Source: a phage. Taken from it: a DNA stretch of 40,865 nucleotides. Location of the stretch: sequence record PQ785851.1, one strand, 5' to 3'. The notes below the pieces were generated by a model, which saw only the letters and a list, made by a program, of their open reading frames with translations, was not told where the DNA came from and did not search any database. Shown here piece after piece: positions 3,509 through 40,454 of this stretch; position 1 is the stretch's first letter; the number at the start of each line of letters is the position of its first letter. The translations under genes and the position numbers were made by a program.

Positions 3509-3645
3509 TAGTGTGTATATCGTGTATACCGATTCTAGCGGAGGGTGCATTGGTATATGCGCCTCACAACACTGTATAAAATCACATGATATAAAAATTA
3601 TAACCGGAACACTCCAGAACAGTAGTTACATGGTATACACAGTAA

Positions 3646-3816: not shown

Positions 3817-3861
3817 AATAGCACGATTTGCTAAAGACAAGATGCAATCTTTTGGTATATT
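3817..3861 (+). promoter_or_regulatory. promoter-like module, conserved 22-bp element family (copy b)
   Basis: AATAGCAC-GATT-TGCTAAAGAC, 17 bp, TATATT (TG two bases upstream). Confidence 0.45.
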
Positions 3862-3912: not shown

Positions 3913-4578
3913 ATGAACCTAGCTCTACTAAATGAAGATGTGAAAATGAACAGTTATCAGTTTTTGAATGAAGTCATCAATCCAGCGAGATTGATCGCTG
4001 GCGAGTCTGACGTTCGACACAATGACTTTGTTGAGAGGATTGAGGATGAGCTTGATGGGTTTGAGTTTGACTACGAAAGTTTCGTAATCAAAAGCGATGG
4101 AAGAGGAGGTTATAGAAAGTCAATTAATTCACCAGTGCTTAATATGGAACAGATGCTTCTTGTTGGAATGCGTGAGTCAAAGTCTGTTCGCCGATCTGTT
4201 CTTGAAAAGCGCAAGGAGATGCAAAACACAATCAACAAACAGGCAGAAGTAATCACCAAGATGGTAAGCATTGATGAACTAAAAGAGGCAAGAATTATGC
4301 TTGGTGTGGCTAATGCGCAGAACGCTCACCTTAGCCAGCGAATTGTTGCTGAGCAGCGCATTAACGAAATACTTCTTATGGATAAGAGCATTGACGAGAA
4401 ACTTGACCTTCTCGCTTGCGAGGCTCGCCAGTGCTGGGCATCACGCTCAGACGAAATGGAGGAGAGATTTAAGTATGAAGCTCAATGTTTTGCTCTTAAA
4501 GAAAAAACGGAAGCACTGACCGGATTGATCGAGAATAAACTTGGCATCGACATTAAACTGTTGCTGGAAAAGAAATAG
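3913..4578 (+). CDS. putative Rha-like phage regulatory protein
   Basis: 221 aa; N-terminal ...ESDVRHNDFVERIEDEL... resembles the Rha core as I recall it; coiled-coil-like C-terminus. Confidence 0.3.
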   Translation: MNLALLNEDVKMNSYQFLNEVINPARLIAGESDVRHNDFVERIEDELDGFEFDYESFVIKSDGRGGYRKSINSPVLNMEQMLLVGMRESKSVRRSVLEKRKEMQNTINKQAEVITKMVSIDELKEARIMLGVANAQNAHLSQRIVAEQRINEILLMDKSIDEKLDLLACEARQCWASRSDEMEERFKYEAQCFALKEKTEALTGLIENKLGIDIKLLLEKK

Positions 4579-4625
4579 CACGAATAGCTAAAGACAAAGC
4601 TTATAGATGATGTATGATTACTCCA
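4574..4625 (+). promoter_or_regulatory. promoter-like module, conserved 22-bp element family (copy c)
   Basis: AATAGCAC-GAAT-AGCTAAAGAC, 17 bp, TATGAT, 6 nt (tactcc), ATCGAAACGAAA. Confidence 0.5.
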
Positions 4626-4775: not shown

Positions 4776-4996
4776 TGAAGAAAATTATTGTAGCTGCGGC
4801 GTTAGTCCTGAGTGGCTGCTCGTCGATGCCTGAGCGCACTTGTACGGCTATTTATGAATCAGGTGGCGCAGAGTACTCGGTTTATGTTTTCGGTACGCAG
4901 CAACGCGGTGATGAACTCCTGTTGCGTGCTGGATACCCATTATCGTTCCATTACGTTTCAGAGAATAATTTCAAAGACCATGATTGTGGTGGTTGA
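4776..4996 (+). CDS. small lipoprotein (possible Cor/Llp-like exclusion protein)
   Basis: Strong RBS AAGGGGG before the ATG at 4776; signal peptide MKKIIVAAALVLSGC with lipobox LSGC; the track ORF 4721 begins upstream in the same frame. Confidence 0.5.
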
Positions 4997-16616: not shown

Positions 16617-16645
16617 TTTGATTTCCTTCGTTCATTTCGTTTCGA

Positions 16646-16697
16646 TGAATGAACTATACAGCAACCCACGGCTTAGTCTTTAACAAAAAGTGCTATT
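16646..16697 (-). promoter_or_regulatory. promoter-like module, conserved 22-bp element family (copy k), drives the lipoprotein moron
   Basis: Minus strand reads AATAGCAC-TTTT-TGTTAAAGAC, 17 bp, TATAGT, 6 nt (tcattc), ATCGAAACGAAATG. Confidence 0.5.
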
Positions 16698-25815: not shown

Positions 25816-25891
25816 TGGTGTTCCGCGCTGGACTCGAACCAGCAACTAAGACTTAGGAGGTCTTTGCGTTATCCTGTTACGCCAGCAGAAC
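25816..25891 (-). tRNA. tRNA-Arg (anticodon CCU)
   Basis: Hand-folded cloverleaf, 76 nt: acceptor GTTCTGC/GCGGAAC, T-arm GCTGG-TTCGAGT-CCAGC, anticodon arm AAGAC-CTCCTAA-GTCTT, encoded CCA end. Confidence 0.8.
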
Positions 25892-26535: not shown

Positions 26536-26642
26536 TTTCTGCCCTCTCGTTGTTTGATTGGTTGATTATATGGCATCAATGCCTGTCACGTTTAGCTATT
26601 CGTGCTGTCTACACCTGGCCATCTATCAAAAGTTGCTAATAC

Positions 26643-27481: not shown

Positions 27482-27528
27482 ATTATGCCTGATTTCTCAG
27501 GCGATTGTTTAGCAATTCGTGCTATTGT
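27482..27528 (-). promoter_or_regulatory. promoter-like module, conserved 22-bp element family (copy d)
   Basis: Minus strand reads AATAGCAC-GAAT-TGCTAAACAA, 17 bp, CATAAT, 6 nt (taccac), ATCGACAACACGA. Confidence 0.5.
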
Positions 27529-29215: not shown

Positions 29216-29268
29216 AATAGCACTTTTTGCTAATGACATTCATTGGCGACTGGACCATAATGAATCCA
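29216..29268 (+). promoter_or_regulatory. promoter-like module, conserved 22-bp element family (copy l)
   Basis: AATAGCAC-TTTT-TGCTAATGAC, 18 bp, CATAAT, 6 nt (gaatcc), ATCAACAACGAGGAGAGAG, ATG. Confidence 0.45.
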
Positions 29269-29882: not shown

Positions 29883-30043
29883 TGCTATTACCATCTGAGA
29901 TTAACTATTTTGATCTGGAAGTTATTAGTTCTTACAGCGGCAAGGGCTGGCCTTGCGGGGAATGGTTCAACGAGGACTTGCTTGAATCTCACGAGATTAT
30001 GCTTAAGGCGATTGAGAAGGCGAGAAATAGCACGAATTGCTAA
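29882..30043 (+). CDS. small hypothetical protein (53 aa)
   Basis: Hand-translated; its last codons ...NSTNC-stop lie inside promoter-like copy e. Confidence 0.3.
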   Translation: MLLPSEINYFDLEVISSYSGKGWPCGEWFNEDLLESHEIMLKAIEKARNSTNC

Positions 30044-30077
30044 AGCCCTTCGGGGCTTTTGTTGTATAGTTTCCTCA
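30026..30077 (+). promoter_or_regulatory. promoter-like module, conserved 22-bp element family (copy e)
   Basis: AATAGCAC-GAAT-TGCTAAAGCC, 17 bp, TATAGT, 6 nt (ttcctc), ATCGAAACGAAAGAG; the 17-bp spacer contains a hairpin. Confidence 0.45.
30043..30061 (+). terminator. rho-independent terminator / attenuator embedded in the promoter spacer
   Basis: Hairpin AGCCC-ttcg-GGGCT followed by TTTT. Confidence 0.45.
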
Positions 30078-30102
30078 TCGAAACGAAAGAGAACAAGTAA
30101 TC

Positions 30103-34057: not shown

Positions 34058-34102
34058 ATTATGCCGCATTTCTACGGCATTGGTTATGCAAAAAGTGCTA
34101 TT
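34058..34102 (-). promoter_or_regulatory. promoter-like module, conserved 22-bp element family (copy g)
   Basis: Minus strand reads AATAGCAC-TTTT-TGCATAACCA, 17 bp, CATAAT, 6 nt (caccgc), ATCGAAACTAGAC; overlaps the stop of the upstream gene. Confidence 0.45.
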
Positions 34103-35231
34103 AGCTAAACATTTCTGGGCGACAAGTGAATCGACCAATCTCGCCGAATTTAGGGCTGTAGATTATTACAGACGCCTGGCGATAAGAGCGATAACCACCG
34201 TTTGCGCTGTAAGCATCTTTCGCACCAAGCTGACCATGAGACTCATCAATACCCAAGTTACCTTCTGTAATCGTTTGATGGTGATAATGGCCCGAATGGG
34301 TATAAACATATTCTGATTCACCAAACGCCTTGCGGTGGTCACGTGCCAAAGTTGATAAGCGAGTATCTGGCTTGCGAAGCTCATGACCATGACAGTATCC
34401 AAGAAGCGTCTTGCCAAACTGAGTTACGTGCAACGCAGCAGGTGAAGCATCAACATTTACCCTTGGCTCATCCATATAGAATGCCGCCATTGCTGCACGC
34501 AACCAAATCATACCCGAAAGGTCGTGGTTACCTGGAATAATCTGAACTTCAACTTCTTTATGCTTATCAAGCATCAGGCTAATTGCTCGCCGAGTCGCTC
34601 GAACAGCTACGTAAACAAGCTTATGGTATCGGCTATCCTGGTCCAGCACATGATGACTGGTAGGCGTAACAGCTTCCAATCCATCTGAGTGGAGGAAGTC
34701 GCCACCAATCAGCAATACTGCTTTCTTAGAACAAGGAGCCTTAGCAACAGCGTAATCAAAATAATCATTAAGGACACGCTCTGCGATTTCAGTACTGTAA
34801 TTCTCCCCGCATTCTGCATGGTGCGCCATTGCTCCAATGTGCATATCAAAAACAGGATAAAGACTTAAAGTGTCTTCCCACAAACCAACTCTTAATGCTC
34901 TAGGCTTCTCGCGCGGCAATTCATCAGTAAGCGCTTCAATAGCCTGAAACATCATCTCTTCTTGCTTCTCTTTGTCGATGTCAGACTTAACCCACTGCTG
35001 CTTAATCTCACCATCAGCACCAATAAGACTTGATACACCCTTAACTGCATAACCTTGAGGAATAAGGTTGCTTACATCTCTACCGTGCCCCTCTCCAGCC
35101 TTAGCTAGCTTACTACGACGCAATTCAACATTGCGAATATTCATACCGTACTTCTCTGCTATTGCTTTGTTAGTCATGCCGCTCGCTAGTTCTTCACTAA
35201 GCTGTTCGTTTGTTATTTTTGCAGTTGCCAT
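34101..35231 (-). CDS. HTH-fused metallophosphoesterase (calcineurin-like)
   Basis: 376 aa; N-terminal HTH-like GMTNKAIAEKYGMNIRNVELRRSK; phosphoesterase motifs DMHIG, GGDFLHSDG, GNHD, CHGH, HSGHYH. Confidence 0.6.
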   Translation of the reverse strand: MATAKITNEQLSEELASGMTNKAIAEKYGMNIRNVELRRSKLAKAGEGHGRDVSNLIPQGYAVKGVSSLIGADGEIKQQWVKSDIDKEKQEEMMFQAIEALTDELPREKPRALRVGLWEDTLSLYPVFDMHIGAMAHHAECGENYSTEIAERVLNDYFDYAVAKAPCSKKAVLLIGGDFLHSDGLEAVTPTSHHVLDQDSRYHKLVYVAVRATRRAISLMLDKHKEVEVQIIPGNHDLSGMIWLRAAMAAFYMDEPRVNVDASPAALHVTQFGKTLLGYCHGHELRKPDTRLSTLARDHRKAFGESEYVYTHSGHYHHQTITEGNLGIDESHGQLGAKDAYSANGGYRSYRQASVIIYSPKFGEIGRFTCRPEMFS

Positions 35232-36353: not shown

Positions 36354-36384
36354 TTTCTTTCTCTCTTCGTGTGTTTCGTTTCGA

Positions 36385-36436
36385 TGAAGTGATAATACAC
36401 CACTTCATCAATTCGTCTTTAGCAATTCGTGCTATT
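36385..36436 (-). promoter_or_regulatory. promoter-like module, conserved 22-bp element family (copy h)
   Basis: Minus strand reads AATAGCAC-GAAT-TGCTAAAGAC, 17 bp, TATTAT, 6 nt (cacttc), ATCGAAACGAAACAC. Confidence 0.5.
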
Positions 36437-36851
36437 TTCTAATCATCTCTGCGAATGCAGCAAGAAAACCATCTCTGCCGTAGGCAACTCCTGCGAAACC
36501 GCCTGATTCCCTTACGCTTTTTAGGAATGACTTTTGCTCATCACTTACTGGGCTAGCCTGTGTTTTCCCAGCCCTCTTTAGCTCTATTGCGCCAAATGGA
36601 TAACTTCCTCGTAATGACTCAGGTATTAGAAATAGGCAGTCTGATACGCCTTTAAGAAGTCCTTTAGCCTGGTCTTTCCTTGCCTGACCAATGCTCTTCA
36701 TTGATTCATTAACTGTGTGCCAGTAAACAACCTGCGGATAGTTATACTTAACCCAATCAGAGCAAAAGATTTGTTCGTCGTCTTCCTTCGGGCATGACTT
36801 CACCGGGCCGCCATAGAACTCGAGGTAGTCAGTTTTGTCTGTAACTTTCAT
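36432..36851 (-). CDS. VRR-NUC domain nuclease
   Basis: 139 aa; ...GVSDCLFLIPESLRGSYPFGAIELKRAGKTQASPVSDEQKSFL... resembles the VRR-NUC core. Confidence 0.55.
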   Translation of the reverse strand: MKVTDKTDYLEFYGGPVKSCPKEDDEQIFCSDWVKYNYPQVVYWHTVNESMKSIGQARKDQAKGLLKGVSDCLFLIPESLRGSYPFGAIELKRAGKTQASPVSDEQKSFLKSVRESGGFAGVAYGRDGFLAAFAEMIRK

Positions 36852-38842
36852 AACAATTCTCCAAAATTCTTAAAAGCGATTATATCTTTACCTTTGCCGT
36901 TTTTTCTATGTGTAACCTGCACTGGTGCGCGGAACTTATCTACGTTCGCCATAATCATTCTCGCATTGCGAAGTCTGCCAATTCTTGTGGCTTCAGCGCG
37001 ATTCTCTATATGAGCAAGGCAGAAGTTCTTCCATAGCACGCTGCAAACTCGATGGTCAGACTCGGGGTTGAAGAATTCCCATGCATTAAACCGATCTCCG
37101 TTATGAGCCATGATATTGTACTTAACAACAATTCCGGTTTGATTCTTACTTAAGCCAACTTGAAAATCATAAACACGAAGGTAATCACCACGACGATACA
37201 TCTTACCTGTAAGGTTAGCATTGGGGTCTTTAAGCATCTCTCCGCACTCTCGACAGACCTTCGCTGCTATATCATTGCGAGTCCCGCACCCTTTTTTGAT
37301 AATAGCCTTTGTCTGCAGGTCTGTAATATCTTCACAAACTGTAAAAGTAAAGAAGTGCTCACATCTCTTTCCGTCAATCTTATTTCCGCATCTACGAGCA
37401 AAAGGCGAATTCTCGTATGAGCAAATTGGGCACACTCGAACCTCTGAATCACCATTGCGTGATGACTTAAACTTCTCGGCCTGAATCTCTTCAATTATTG
37501 GATCAAAGTAAAGTTCAGCCATATCATCAAGTGCGCCAGCAAAGTCCAGGACTAAGTGGTCATCCTTTTTCATACCAATTTCAATATGTTTCTTCTTGAG
37601 AATTCGCATTCCACGACCAAGAAGCTGAATCATTAATGTCAGGCTTCCAATCTTGCGGAGTATGACACTTGTGTCCCACGGAGGCACCGAAACGCCTGTG
37701 GTTAAGCATCCAATCTGAAAAATAATCTTGTACTTTCCGGTCTGGCATTCATCTAGAATTTCCCTTCTCTTCTTCTCACCAGTGGAATCAGTGATTATCG
37801 CGTAAGGATAACCATCTGGTAGAGCAGCAGCCGCTTCATCGCAGTGCATTTTACCAGCGCAAGTTACCAGTGCGGCGTTACGTGTTTCAAGTATTTTGAT
37901 AACGAACCCCATTATATTTTGTGTCATCGTCTGGTTTTCGTGAATCTTTGCAGCCATTGCATCCATTTCTTTTTTGCTGAAATCCTTAACGCCATCACTT
38001 CCATCAGGTGCAAACTCGCTAAGGTCATAACCCAAATCACCAACCTCACCGTAAACAGTTGGAACAACGAATCCCAAATCAACCAGGTAACTGGTCGGAA
38101 CTTGCATTACCGTCTTGCGCCAGAAGCCACGAATATTTGGGTTACTAACTACAATGTGGTCGTTGTTACGATACGGGCTACCAGTCAAGCCGAATATACG
38201 GAGCTCGCGACCATACTTCTCTTTGCAGCGGCGCTTCATTTCAGTGATGATTAGTGTGTACTGCGCACGACCAGTTCCAAGCAATCCGGTATTCACTCCA
38301 TCCTTGAAAACCATTTCGCCTTTCTTGGTGCTCATTTGCTCAAATGTCTCTTCGTTCTCTTCAGCTTCTACGATATCCATGTGGTCCACCATGTGTGCCT
38401 CATCTATTGCGATAACTGCCGGAACATAGTCACCAAGCCCCTTGAACAAGCCGTTTGCCGCCGTTCCTTCACTTGCCACTATAGTTGGGTAGTAAACAGA
38501 TTTAACGTTAAGGCCAGCGCAATATACGCTATTACGGATACCGAAGTTACGGAGTTCTTCAGCATTCTGGCTGATGATTTCTGACTGGCGAGAAAGCACC
38601 ATGTAAGGAAGGCCAAGCTGCTCCATGCGTTTACCAATCATGGCAAGAATGATTGTCTTACCTGCCGATACCGACAGGTCTGCGATGAACGGAGCTTCGT
38701 ACTTAGCAATATTCTTGCCGATTTGGTCGAATGTCACGCACTGGAATGGATACGGCGTAATATCTCCAAACTGATAGTCTCTCTGAATCTGCTTAATCTT
38801 TTCTTGGTCAAAGTTTGCCACTAAGCGTTCTACTGGAAGCAT
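36848..38842 (-). CDS. SF2 (DEAD/DEAH-like) helicase with C-terminal Cys-rich region
   Basis: 664 aa; Walker A ...SAGKT..., Walker B VIAIDEAHMV; C-terminal clusters CPICS...C...C and C..C. Confidence 0.75.
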   Translation of the reverse strand: MLPVERLVANFDQEKIKQIQRDYQFGDITPYPFQCVTFDQIGKNIAKYEAPFIADLSVSAGKTIILAMIGKRMEQLGLPYMVLSRQSEIISQNAEELRNFGIRNSVYCAGLNVKSVYYPTIVASEGTAANGLFKGLGDYVPAVIAIDEAHMVDHMDIVEAEENEETFEQMSTKKGEMVFKDGVNTGLLGTGRAQYTLIITEMKRRCKEKYGRELRIFGLTGSPYRNNDHIVVSNPNIRGFWRKTVMQVPTSYLVDLGFVVPTVYGEVGDLGYDLSEFAPDGSDGVKDFSKKEMDAMAAKIHENQTMTQNIMGFVIKILETRNAALVTCAGKMHCDEAAAALPDGYPYAIITDSTGEKKRREILDECQTGKYKIIFQIGCLTTGVSVPPWDTSVILRKIGSLTLMIQLLGRGMRILKKKHIEIGMKKDDHLVLDFAGALDDMAELYFDPIIEEIQAEKFKSSRNGDSEVRVCPICSYENSPFARRCGNKIDGKRCEHFFTFTVCEDITDLQTKAIIKKGCGTRNDIAAKVCRECGEMLKDPNANLTGKMYRRGDYLRVYDFQVGLSKNQTGIVVKYNIMAHNGDRFNAWEFFNPESDHRVCSVLWKNFCLAHIENRAEATRIGRLRNARMIMANVDKFRAPVQVTHRKNGKGKDIIAFKNFGELL

Positions 38843-38869
38843 TTTAAATATCCTGATAGTTCTTTAGTT

Positions 38870-38927
38870 CGTTGCATTGATGTATAATAACAGCCATCGA
38901 ACCTATTGTTTAACAAAAAATGCTATT
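38870..38927 (-). promoter_or_regulatory. promoter-like module, conserved 22-bp element family (copy j), drives the helicase operon
   Basis: Minus strand reads AATAGCAT-TTTT-TGTTAAACAA, 16 bp, TATTAT, 6 nt, ATGCAACGAAC; its -10 overlaps a plus-strand TATAAT (38883-38888). Confidence 0.45.
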
Positions 38928-38938
38928 GAGGTGATTAA

Positions 38939-39421
38939 ATGAATGCAGTTGATAAGCGAACCATTAACGGCAATAACGGAACTGTCCGCACTGAAGACAA
39001 AAAACAACGAAAACGACCATCGGGTTACTACGTTTTAAAAGATGAAGTAAGAGCCGGGCTACGCGCGCGACTGGAGATTGTTCTTGATTTCTACGGTACA
39101 AAGGCGAACATCGCAAAGCAGTTAAATGTGTCCAACCAAGCTGTATCGGAATGGTTTAACCGCGGTATGATTTCGGCTCGAGGGGCTCAGCGAGCACATA
39201 ATGCGTACAAGCGAAATAAGGAGGGATTTCGAGCTACATTCTGCCGACCAGACCTGCAATTCGACGGAAACGGAAAACCGCTAACACTTCGATGCAAGAA
39301 GCGCCATATGCTTCGCGTAGTTACCGATGCAGAACTAGCAACAAAGCCACCCTGTCGACCATGGCGAAAGAATAAGATTGCCAACGAAGCCGCACGAAAA
39401 GCTAAAGAAAGATCTGAATGA
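38939..39421 (+). CDS. Cro/CI-type HTH DNA-binding protein with basic C-terminal extension
   Basis: 160 aa; HTH-like ...GTKANIAKQLNVSNQAVSEWFNRGMIS...; RBS GAGGTGA. Confidence 0.5.
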   Translation: MNAVDKRTINGNNGTVRTEDKKQRKRPSGYYVLKDEVRAGLRARLEIVLDFYGTKANIAKQLNVSNQAVSEWFNRGMISARGAQRAHNAYKRNKEGFRATFCRPDLQFDGNGKPLTLRCKKRHMLRVVTDAELATKPPCRPWRKNKIANEAARKAKERSE

Positions 39422-39432
39422 GTATGTATAAT

Positions 39433-39461
39433 GCCCTCAAGTTAAATGCGAGGGCTTTTTT
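39433..39461 (+). terminator. hairpin plus T-run immediately before the primase start (attenuator-like)
   Basis: GCCCTC-aagttaaatgc-GAGGGC followed by TTTTTT, then ATG at 39462. Confidence 0.35.
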
Positions 39462-40385
39462 ATGCATCACGATAAGAATGAAGTTTTGTCAAAAATGAAG
39501 GGCATGTGGTCAAAGTTTTACGAATCTCACATGGGCTGGACAAAAGAAAACCTTAGCAAGAAACACGGGCCATGCCCATACTGCTTTGGCACTGACAGAT
39601 TCAGATTTACCGACGAAATAGGCAGTGAAAAAGGAAATGGCTCGGCAGTTTGTTCGAAATGCGGAAGTGACTCCGGTATAGGATGGGTCATGAAGTGCAC
39701 TGGATCGTCCTTCGCCGATTCAGTAAATTTGCTTGGTGACTGGCTGAACTTAACACCAATTGAGGTTATAGTTAAAGCAAACAAGCAAGCATCCAGAACT
39801 CATCGTTATAAGATGGGCGCTCAAGTAGACCATGAAAAAGTTTTGGAGGTCATGGGGAGAACTCAGCGAGTTGACTCAAGTCCACTCACGACATATGAGG
39901 GTATATACTCTGAATCTGGTTTTGATGTTGGTATAGCTAAAGATGGTTCAATGATTCATGCCGTGCCTTGCTCCATGGTTTATGAGGATGGGCTTGGTGA
40001 TGAGTTCTGTAACGTAATGTTTATTGATGAGGATTCAAATGTTAAGTTCCTTGCTGGTGATTATACTCGTGATTCTGTTGCTGTCATTGGTTCTAGGCAG
40101 GACAATAGTTATACTTATGTTGTTGACAATTATATTGATGGCGTACGTGTTCACCTTGCTACTGGGGGTCGCGAGGTGTTTGTTGCTTTCTCCTGTTACA
40201 ATATGGAGATGGTTATACACCGCGACAAGTCAAGGAAGTTCAGAATTGCTTGCCATGATTATGATATCGATATCCTTGCTGTTGCTGACGATCGCAATGT
40301 TGATGTGGTGATTCCCAATGACGGTAAGTCATTTAAAACAGGCATACGCAAGAAAGTGTACAAAGCCAACGACTTAATAAACTAA
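39462..40385 (+). CDS. DNA primase (zinc ribbon plus TOPRIM-like)
   Basis: 307 aa; Cys pairs CPYC...CSKC; acidic TOPRIM-like segment ...ACHDYDIDILAVADDRN... Confidence 0.6.
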   Translation: MHHDKNEVLSKMKGMWSKFYESHMGWTKENLSKKHGPCPYCFGTDRFRFTDEIGSEKGNGSAVCSKCGSDSGIGWVMKCTGSSFADSVNLLGDWLNLTPIEVIVKANKQASRTHRYKMGAQVDHEKVLEVMGRTQRVDSSPLTTYEGIYSESGFDVGIAKDGSMIHAVPCSMVYEDGLGDEFCNVMFIDEDSNVKFLAGDYTRDSVAVIGSRQDNSYTYVVDNYIDGVRVHLATGGREVFVAFSCYNMEMVIHRDKSRKFRIACHDYDIDILAVADDRNVDVVIPNDGKSFKTGIRKKVYKANDLIN

Positions 40386-40407
40386 CCTCCTTCGGGAGGT
40401 TTTTTAT
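40384..40407 (+). terminator. rho-independent terminator after the primase gene
   Basis: Hairpin CCTCC-ttcg-GGAGG followed by TTTTTTATT. Confidence 0.6.
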
Positions 40408-40430: not shown

Positions 40431-40454
40431 TTTTAGCAAATTGTGCTATTTTAC
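40431..40454. promoter_or_regulatory. inverted copy (i) of the conserved 22-bp element, upstream of the tail-fibre gene
   Basis: Plus strand reads TTTAGCAAATTGTGCTATTTT; a TG-n-TATTTT extended -10 lies 19 nt before the ATG at 40471. Confidence 0.35.

Follow-up and report, generated by a model that had tools for sequence, protein, structure and literature searches.

A conserved shared -10 element at a predicted bidirectional promoter of T1-like phages, with an upstream repeat that matches the host marbox

In the symmetric bidirectional promoters of Escherichia coli (Warman et al.), two polymerases cannot bind together and the commonest separation of the divergent starts is 18 bp (PMC12825309); separations of 10 and 23 bp also occur. 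Among five E. coli bidirectional promoters tested, the two directions competed only once an activator boosted one of them. At PacrA/acrR the marbox lies in the acrR leader; SoxS bound there activates acrA, and acrR is silenced by polymerase competition, not by a roadblock. Activation of one direction by SoxS or MarA represses the other. The site described here lies at positions 38883-38889 of a 40,865-nt stretch of phage DNA (PQ785851.1, hereafter the window), where a 7-bp core separates a leftward helicase operon from a rightward operon that encodes a Cro-like helix-turn-helix (HTH) regulator and a primase. This core is probably part of a sigma-70 bidirectional promoter that is conserved throughout the Drexlerviridae, with a leftward half of the marbox class II type that would be served by host activators.

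For the marbox, a consensus (AYnGCACnnWnnRYYAAAY; PMC3709825) and a working search pattern (gcannwwntgnnaaa; PMC12052159) are published, and in the class II arrangement, where a -35 hexamer cannot be recognised, a forward marbox covers the -35 region at 30-42 bp upstream of the start. According to structures, sigma-70 is displaced from the -35 at micF, an E. coli promoter composed of ACAGCACTGAATGTCAAAAC, 18 nt, TAGAAT, 7 nt and +1, with its marbox at about -41. Of the T1-like phages, TLS carries a 21-nt repeat, aaATAGCACnnnTTGnTAAAA, in 18 intergenic copies; the repeat is said to occur in T1, Rtp and Rogue1 as well, and its function is left open between a stoperator, an enhancer site and an UP element (PMC11447400). 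Only three sigma-70 promoters are predicted in silico in TLS, one of which is P57 (PMC11447400).

The source of the window, which is a nearly complete genome, is a T1-like siphovirus of the Drexlerviridae (Braunvirinae). The region around the shared -10 is 94-95% identical to that of CY1 and Rao1, both phages of Escherichia; at lower identity it is found in 497 phage records. The intergenic gap of 96 bp (38843-38938) extends from the helicase ATG (38842, minus strand) to the ATG of the HTH gene (38939, plus strand) and includes the following elements, for which the start sites are predicted from the hexamers, not mapped:

38883-38889, both strands: shared -10 core TATAATA, read as TATAAT on plus and TATTAT on minus.
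38883-38888, plus: -10 hexamer TATAAT of the regulator/primase promoter; predicted start C 38895 or A 38896.
38884-38892, minus: extended -10 TGTTATTAT of the helicase-operon promoter; predicted start A 38877.
38860-38866, plus: weak -35 with 2/6 matches, either TTCTTT (38860-38865) with a 17-nt spacer or TCTTTA with a spacer of 16.
38896-38901, plus: ATCGAA, predicted start of the regulator mRNA, 7 nt past the -10.
38867-38877, minus: AATGCAACGAAC, conserved initial transcribed sequence of the predicted helicase mRNA; variant form of the family motif ATCGAAACGAAA.
38907-38926, minus: marbox-like 20-mer of the upstream repeat, ATAGCATTTTTTGTTAAACA, oriented forward with respect to the helicase promoter.

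The sequence confirms what the preliminary description had stated of the core, that TATAAT (38883-38888, plus) and TATTAT (38889-38884, minus) lie in the same 7 bp. The opposite-strand hexamers are offset by 1 bp, overlap by 5 bp and jointly occupy 7 bp; as is characteristic of bidirectional promoters, they share bases while each keeps A(-11) and T(-7). TATTAT follows TGT, which makes it a canonical extended -10 (TG at 38892-38891). The predicted starts, 38877 leftward and 38895/6 rightward, would be separated by 18-19 bp. Starts of an ATCGAA type had been proposed for both directions: the plus strand has such a start 7 nt after its -10, a hexamer that is not conserved beyond the closest genera, while the minus strand has ATGCAA (38876-38871) 7 nt downstream of its -10, which is only similar, and an ATCAAT that begins 2 nt downstream. 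A consensus promoter scan lists the minus promoter as TAAACA-17-TATTAT with TG. The plus promoter at 38883-38888 is not listed because its best -35 matches only 2/6, and ahead of the regulator gene the scan offers no further promoter candidate on the plus strand. The overlap of hexamers alone is not significant, since a perfect TATAAT forces at least 4/6 matches on the opposite strand; TATAATA occurs nine times in the window compared to 6.4 expected (24 of 100 shuffles reach nine). It is conservation and position that set the shared -10 apart from chance.

Conservation was followed at 102 Drexlerviridae loci (82 distinct sequences) anchored on an invariant 18-mer beside the regulator gene. All 82 distinct sequences can be read as a -10 hexamer in either direction at this spot, with TATAATA, TATACTA, AATACTA, AATAATA, CATAATA and TATCATA as variants of the core. 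The minus reading is TATTAT in 69/82, TAGTAT in 11/82 and TATGAT in 2/82, always 19-20 nt from the invariant 18-mer; the plus reading is TATAAT in 66/82, TACAAT in 8/82, TATACT in 3/82 and other variants in the remaining 5/82. Among 20 representatives with less than 80% mutual identity, the seven core columns are 80-95% conserved, as against 30-60% in the flanks. Genes with ribosome-binding sites (RBSs) stand on both sides, and the direction-specific elements are conserved. On the regulator side, a -35-like box with a 16-18 bp spacer and at least 4/6 matches is found in 64 of the 82 sequences, for example TTGTCA (Webervirus), TTGAAT (T1), TTGTCT (SU57 group), TTGTTA (IME542) and TTGACT (TLS-like). 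In the SU57 group the good plus hexamer is a separate one, TACAAT, spaced 17 bp from TTGTCT. A Vibrio phage keeps both hexamers, with a weaker regulator-side reading (GATGAT, read by eye), as do the TLS-like contigs, in one of which the regulator-facing promoter P57, checked in the sequence, is TTGACT-17-TATCAT. P57 is the same site as the regulator-facing reading and adjoins the repeat DR11. Thus, the two divergent promoters that had been described are very probably real, given that both hexamers are kept family-wide, that the helicase-side one stands at a fixed distance from the repeat and that P57, predicted independently, coincides with the regulator-side one.

The plus -35 is weakest in four sequences, which include the window and CY1. 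At 38860-38866 both read TCTTTA, compared to TTGTTA in IME542, phiA2-1 and AN_ECEAS, and the regulator/primase promoter appears to have become weaker in the lineage of this phage. In the SU57 record (L001), the BPROM promoter annotated at 1790-1822 is displaced from the conserved TTGTCT-17-TACAAT promoter at 1764-1792; it misses the conserved hexamers, has the appearance of a weak prediction and was set aside. Database promoter annotations for Drexlerviridae look unreliable.

The second conserved component is the repeat. The 20-mer at 38907-38926 lies 17 nt from the minus -10, is centred at about -40 from the predicted helicase start and would span about +12 to +31 of the plus transcript. The invariant 18-mer within it (38909-38926) has 10 copies in the window (0.36 expected) and more than 20 in T1. 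Read toward the downstream gene, the consensus is ATAGCACnnnTTGYTAAA, with copies at:

1953-1970, 3818-3835, 4575-4592, 16679-16696, 26591-26608 and 27508-27525 (copies 1-6).
29217-29234, 30027-30044, 34084-34101, 36418-36435, 38909-38926 and 40432-40449 (copies 7-12).

A common layout (repeat, -10, leader, RBS and gene) is observed at 11 of 13 window sites and at no fewer than 13 sites in T1. At the 11 window promoters the distance from repeat to -10 is 19-21 nt (20 in nine of them), the -10 hexamers match TATAAT at 5-6 of 6 positions, and, from sequences read by eye, no TTGACA-like hexamer is present 16-18 bp upstream of the -10 at most members of the family. The helicase promoter conforms to the family, its repeat and -10 being 19 nt apart in the window and 20 in T1. 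What distinguishes it is symmetry: its -10 is the most symmetric variant of the repeat-associated promoters, TATTAT being found in 69/82 sequences at the helicase/regulator site compared to 2/23 of the other family promoters, and among the repeat-associated promoters of the window and T1 it is the only one where the mirror hexamer is 6/6.

Other features of these promoters were noted. A conserved initial transcribed sequence, (C)ATCGAAACGAAAG, begins 7 nt past the repeat-associated -10s and leads into the RBS (e.g., 36384-36395, 16645-16656 and 30078-30089), with leaders of about 25-35 nt; this sequence is what had been called an ATCGAA-type start. Inverted repeats of 6-9 bp bracket the -10 at many repeat-type promoters and differ in sequence from one promoter to the next (e.g., GATGAAGTG/CACTTCATC and AGGGGAAT/ATTCCCCT). 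They are found at 36400-36435 of the window and at 1468-1500, 3553-3585, 4362-4395, 4882-4915 and 36462-36500 of T1 (L003), and the mean best stem is 5.5 compared to 3.8 in shuffles. At the T1 helicase/regulator site the bracketing repeat is a perfect 9-mer, AACGTTTAC/GTAAACGTT; the window copy is weak (GATG/CATC). The bracketing repeats could form a hairpin in read-through RNA or a cruciform, or serve as a G+C-rich discriminator. One copy of the upstream repeat, 40432-40449 (34902-34919 in T1), is located past the primase terminator in an orientation opposite to the next tail-fibre gene, an odd orientation shared with T1, and a plus-strand TAGAAT lies only 4 nt upstream. A protein bound to this copy would cover the start site and so act as a repressor.

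By sequence, forward orientation and class II position, the repeat matches the marbox of host MarA/SoxS/Rob. It fits both published marbox patterns, which are independent of the repeat pattern derived here, at every informative position, and its variable positions fall on n. The helicase copy, read as 38926-38908 (ATAGCATTTTTTGTTAAAC), has one mismatch to the 19-mer and is perfect to the 15-mer. Pattern matches are enriched in both phage genomes:

Window, 15-mer, perfect: 8 matches (1.0 expected).
Window, 19-mer, at most 1 mismatch: 12 matches (0.87 expected).
T1, 15-mer, perfect: 20 matches (0.76 expected).
Lambda (control), 15-mer, perfect: 1 match.

The observed counts are reached by 0/100 shuffles of the window and by none of T1. 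Several of the repeat cores differ by no more than one base from sites mapped by ChIP-seq in Salmonella for the MarA/SoxS/Rob/RamA proteins, and the T1 core GCACAAATTGCTAAA is identical to one such site. The repeat reads 5'-GCA...AAA-3' along helicase transcription, that is, in forward orientation, and does so at 10 other family promoters. With starts as predicted, the phage repeat promoters show each sequence feature of class II. At the helicase copy, the TAAACA of the scan (38912-38907) falls within the repeat and there is no separate -35; this hexamer was rejected as the minus -35, as relatives do not conserve it as a -35 (CTTTTA gives TAAAAG) and it is more readily accounted for as marbox sequence. 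TTGYTA inside the repeat was likewise rejected as a true -35, as its spacer to the -10, at 21-22 bp, is too long. Promoters of the helicase type are predicted to be activator-dependent and of class II because a forward consensus marbox is positioned near -40 and a -35 is lacking, which suggests that most promoters of T1-like phages are of the class II MarA/SoxS/Rob type. A phage-encoded MarA homologue was considered and rejected: nothing below E = 7 was found in the window or T1 by tblastn with the E. coli MarA sequence as query, a search of limited sensitivity. A link between marbox and T1 repeat is mentioned neither in the 2024 TLS paper nor in the MarA-regulon papers covered by a literature check that was not thorough.

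RNA-level explanations for the conserved elements were also rejected. The two predicted 5' untranslated regions, and 38860-38930 as a whole, fold no better than shuffles, and the only match in an Rfam scan of the window is a tRNA elsewhere; with both leaders predicted to be unstructured, the conserved elements therefore act at the DNA level. The tRNA gene itself is at 25819-25891 on the minus strand (RF00005, 59 bits), as reported for other T1-like phages (e.g., one tRNA-Arg in the AHP24 group).

In the mechanism that we favour, the 7-mer at 38883-38889 would serve as the -10 for both directions, with starts about 18-19 bp apart. Leftward transcription, of helicase and VRR-NUC nuclease, would arise from a -35-less, activator-dependent class II promoter built like micF, and the likeliest activators would be host MarA/SoxS/Rob, with RamA in Klebsiella and Salmonella. 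Rightward transcription, of regulator and primase, would use the mirror of the same -10 with a -35 of its own, good in most genera and weak in this phage, and would proceed independently of activator through the marbox. As two polymerases cannot share the -10, leftward recruitment should depress rightward transcription; activator occupancy may thus tip the shared -10 to the helicase and lower rightward transcription, as SoxS does at PacrA/acrR. Without activator, both directions would probably fire independently at a low level. The marbox-like repeat is the element most likely to bias direction. From the sequences, their geometry and conservation, and their match to marbox and micF, we infer that both start sites are used, which proteins bind the repeat and that the two directions compete.

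Several points weigh against this mechanism. TATTAT on one strand makes xATAAT automatic on the other, such that within a single sequence the first T of the plus hexamer is the sole independent evidence for a rightward promoter; in this phage the plus -35 is 2/6 and there is no canonical extended -10, so the rightward direction may be weak. The marbox of the helicase copy has GCAT rather than GCAC and is 17 nt from the -10, 1 bp closer than in micF and most family members. In unstressed cells most Rob is sequestered and there is little MarA or SoxS, yet T1-like phages thrive under laboratory conditions, and we know of no host-factor screen in which rob, marA or soxS emerged for T1. Early genes are likewise preceded by the repeat, and a Vibrio phage carries it without change. 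The searchable literature holds no transcription start mapping, transcriptome, binding or expression data for Drexlerviridae, and the whole reading therefore rests on sequence.

The main rival candidate for repeat binding is the regulator itself. The preliminary description had called the first plus gene product Cro-like; the predicted fold resembles that of Cro proteins, and the P22_Cro family match is below threshold. In Foldseek, a confident AlphaFold model (predicted local distance difference test score of 88) has its best PDB matches in the Cro proteins of Xfaso-1, N15 and P22, with template-modelling scores on the target of 0.63-0.71, E = 0.03-1.2 and root-mean-square deviations of 1.6-2.9 A over about 60 residues; some 35 N-terminal and 65 C-terminal residues are unmatched. 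The modelled core resembles all-helical Cro and the controller proteins of restriction-modification systems. The Pfam scores are under the gathering threshold for P22_Cro (PF14549, 25.0 vs 30.2 bits) and YdaS (PF15943, 21.1 vs 30), and many homologues carry precomputed matches to these two families. The protein is restricted to T1-like genomes. Its best-conserved parts are an N-terminal basic segment and the C-terminal region, not the recognition helix: VDKRTxNGNNGTxRxxDKKxRKRPxGYYVLKDEVRAGLRARL is conserved in residues 1-45 and GFRAxFCRPDLxFDxNGKPLxxRC in residues 96-128. This distribution suggests roles beyond simple operator binding.

As a rival to host activators, a dimer of this phage protein may bind the quasi-palindrome TAGCA-N5-TGCTA of the repeat at the same bidirectional promoter, activating the helicase and other repeat promoters from about -41 and shutting its own promoter from about +20. 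The outcome would be an early-to-middle temporal switch, and the resemblance to the marbox would be convergent. The repeat does hold a 5+5 inverted repeat with a half-site spacing of 10 bp, its most conserved copy is directly upstream of the regulator RBS in every relative, regulator and repeat occur together in every contig examined, the predicted fold is of a Cro/controller-protein type, and the regulator promoter, of plain sigma-70 type, could be the first to fire. This alternative is nevertheless unlikely. The conserved and variable positions of the repeat follow the asymmetric marbox rather than the palindrome, its flanks (ATA..C and ..TAAAA) lack symmetry and its copies are orientation-specific; the predicted recognition helix differs between genera while the repeat is invariant; and early genes that carry the repeat need expression before any phage protein is made. 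A palindromic operator for a dimer at -42 was accordingly downgraded after the marbox comparison, based on the asymmetric positions, the orientation specificity, the 7-bp spacing of the elements and the varying recognition helix. Apart from the upstream repeat, the only inverted repeat of at least 6 nt in the gap is a TTTAAA palindrome (38843-38848), which adjoins the helicase start codon, away from the promoter; an operator for the HTH protein in the gap was rejected. Covariation of regulator and repeat is uninformative, as the most distant relatives (Vibrio phage Vc1, a Salmonella TLS-like contig and a metagenomic contig) share the repeat. In this analysis no evidence was found that ties the HTH protein to the repeat.

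That only the helicase-facing promoter works, with the plus TATAAT a by-product of -10 symmetry and the regulator and primase transcribed from elsewhere (e.g., within the helicase gene) or at a very low level, is improbable. The automatic mirror of TATTAT, the 2/6 match of the plus -35 and the lack of enrichment of the 7-mer in the window are all compatible with it; however, the first T of the plus hexamer and the -35-like box at 16-18 bp are conserved despite differing flanks, the SU57 group holds its separate plus TACAAT with TTGTCT, no other plus-strand promoter candidate is present upstream, and the conserved regulator and primase genes need a promoter. Slightly more improbable still is a repeat with no dedicated activator, acting as an UP-like element for the polymerase alpha subunits or as a stoperator-type repressor site while core strength sets the direction: such options were put forward with the description of the TLS repeat (PMC11447400) and the repeat is A/T-rich at its promoter-proximal end, yet its invariant G/C positions (GCAC and TG) are atypical of UP elements, its fixed 20-nt distance to a -10 with no -35 is a class II activator signature, and a stoperator has no need of a fixed -10 phase.

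Under the favoured mechanism of a shared -10 with host activators on its helicase side, the mutually exclusive binding of polymerase that had been proposed for the site would be in line with work on bidirectional promoters (PMC12825309). Strong competition by default would not, as the basal activity of the five E. coli promoters tested was too low. Nor does the locus bear out the suggestion of a decision switch, given that the phage is virulent, both operons comprise replication genes and there are no alternative fates to choose between. Multiple operators and two antagonistic repressors were sought in the locus and not found, and no integrase or second repressor is listed in the T1 record or the TLS-like loci. 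A lambda-style bistable choice is not supported, because the family is virulent, replication genes stand on both sides, and a single HTH gene is accompanied by no operator-like repeats in the gap. A temporal or stress-dependent bias between the directions is plausible.

The genes and signals around the promoter are:

36848-38842, minus: helicase of superfamily SF2, 664 aa, predicted to be driven by the minus promoter.
36432-36851, minus: VRR-NUC nuclease, after the helicase and under the same minus promoter (the pair spans 36432-38842).
38851-38855, minus: helicase RBS, CAGGA, ahead of the ATG at 38842.
38928-38941, plus: regulator RBS GAGGTG and ATG, directly behind the repeat.
38939-39421, plus: Cro-like HTH protein, 160 aa, phrog_2856 'transcriptional regulator', first gene of the plus operon.
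39462-40385, plus: DNA primase (Zn_Ribbon_Prim), second gene of the plus operon.
40384-40401: perfect bidirectional intrinsic terminator, AACCTCC-TTCG-GGAGGTT with A-run/T-run flanks, between the primase and tail-fibre genes.

After the helicase/VRR-NUC pair, the next repeat-type promoter starts at 36435. The divergent layout of helicase and HTH/primase is kept from T1 to phages of Klebsiella, Salmonella, Enterobacter and Vibrio, and the order of repeat and then regulator RBS is kept in all relatives. An HNH homing-endonuclease gene is located between regulator and primase in IME542, phiA2-1, DTL and AugustePiccard; it is absent from the window (39422-39461), as from CY1 and SU57.

By themselves, overlapping promoters would be nothing unusual: the arrangement is very common in bacteria and was recognised only recently. 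Conservation across the family extends bidirectional promoters to virulent phages and provides a clean natural test case. The class II marbox reading addresses the open function of the 21-nt repeat of T1-like phages and can be tested with existing Rob, MarA and SoxS reagents, mutants and inducers (salicylate, paraquat, dipyridyl and bile salts). On a wider and bolder proposal, for which the chances appear evenly balanced, Drexlerviridae have wired 10-20 promoters per genome to host MarA/SoxS/Rob/RamA via class II marboxes, the helicase side of the shared -10 included, such that phage expression would read antibiotic, oxidative and bile stress and the activator would tip the -10 from regulator/primase to helicase. 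If true, phage development would be linked to the host regulon that controls intrinsic antibiotic resistance, and this would bear on phage-antibiotic combinations based on the family's many Klebsiella and E. coli phages.

Of the known systems, the middle promoters of phage T4 form a phage-wide class that combines a good -10 with a conserved upstream box and lacks a -35. The promoters described here are similar in being a phage-wide class with an upstream box in place of the -35; the MotA box of T4, however, is near -30 and requires the phage proteins MotA and AsiA, while the box here is near -40 and matches a host activator site. Lambda PR/PRM also has divergent promoters beside a gene for a protein of the Cro fold, which is predicted here, and an activator site at about -42, where cI bound to OR2 serves PRM. 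The lambda promoters are separate, with starts about 80 bp apart, whereas the -10 is shared here; three operators and two antagonistic repressors operate in lambda, compared to one HTH gene with no operators or lysogeny module found at this locus.

The 21-nt TLS repeat aaATAGCACnnnTTGnTAAAA is the same element as the repeat described here, and DR11 and P57 of TLS correspond to the two halves of the shared site. In the TLS paper no connection is drawn between the repeat and the marbox, a -10 at constant distance or a shared bidirectional -10 (PMC11447400). The leftward half has its counterpart in micF, with a forward marbox of 20 bp, 18 nt to the -10 (17 at the helicase copy) and no -35 hexamer; the phage equivalent of the micF layout is ATAGCACTTTTTGTTAAAAC, 18 nt and TATAGT. 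Unlike micF, which belongs to a regulon of scattered members, the phage promoters recur in many copies within a genome of 40-50 kb, and the helicase copy has GCAT in recognition element 1 and a -10 that is shared with a divergent promoter; the action of a host protein is predicted only.

PacrA/acrR is the closest worked example. It differs in being chromosomal, where the present site is in a virulent phage genome, and in its divergent product, a TetR-family repressor rather than a Cro-like protein. The marbox of acrA, where RamA binds at about -71.5, is upstream of a -35 hexamer, unlike the predicted class II marbox of the helicase promoter, which is forward and over the -35. Both promoters have hexamers offset by 1 bp, starts about 18 bp apart (predicted here) and divergent protein-coding genes, and in both an HTH regulator is encoded on one side, with the marbox inside the transcribed leader of that regulator.

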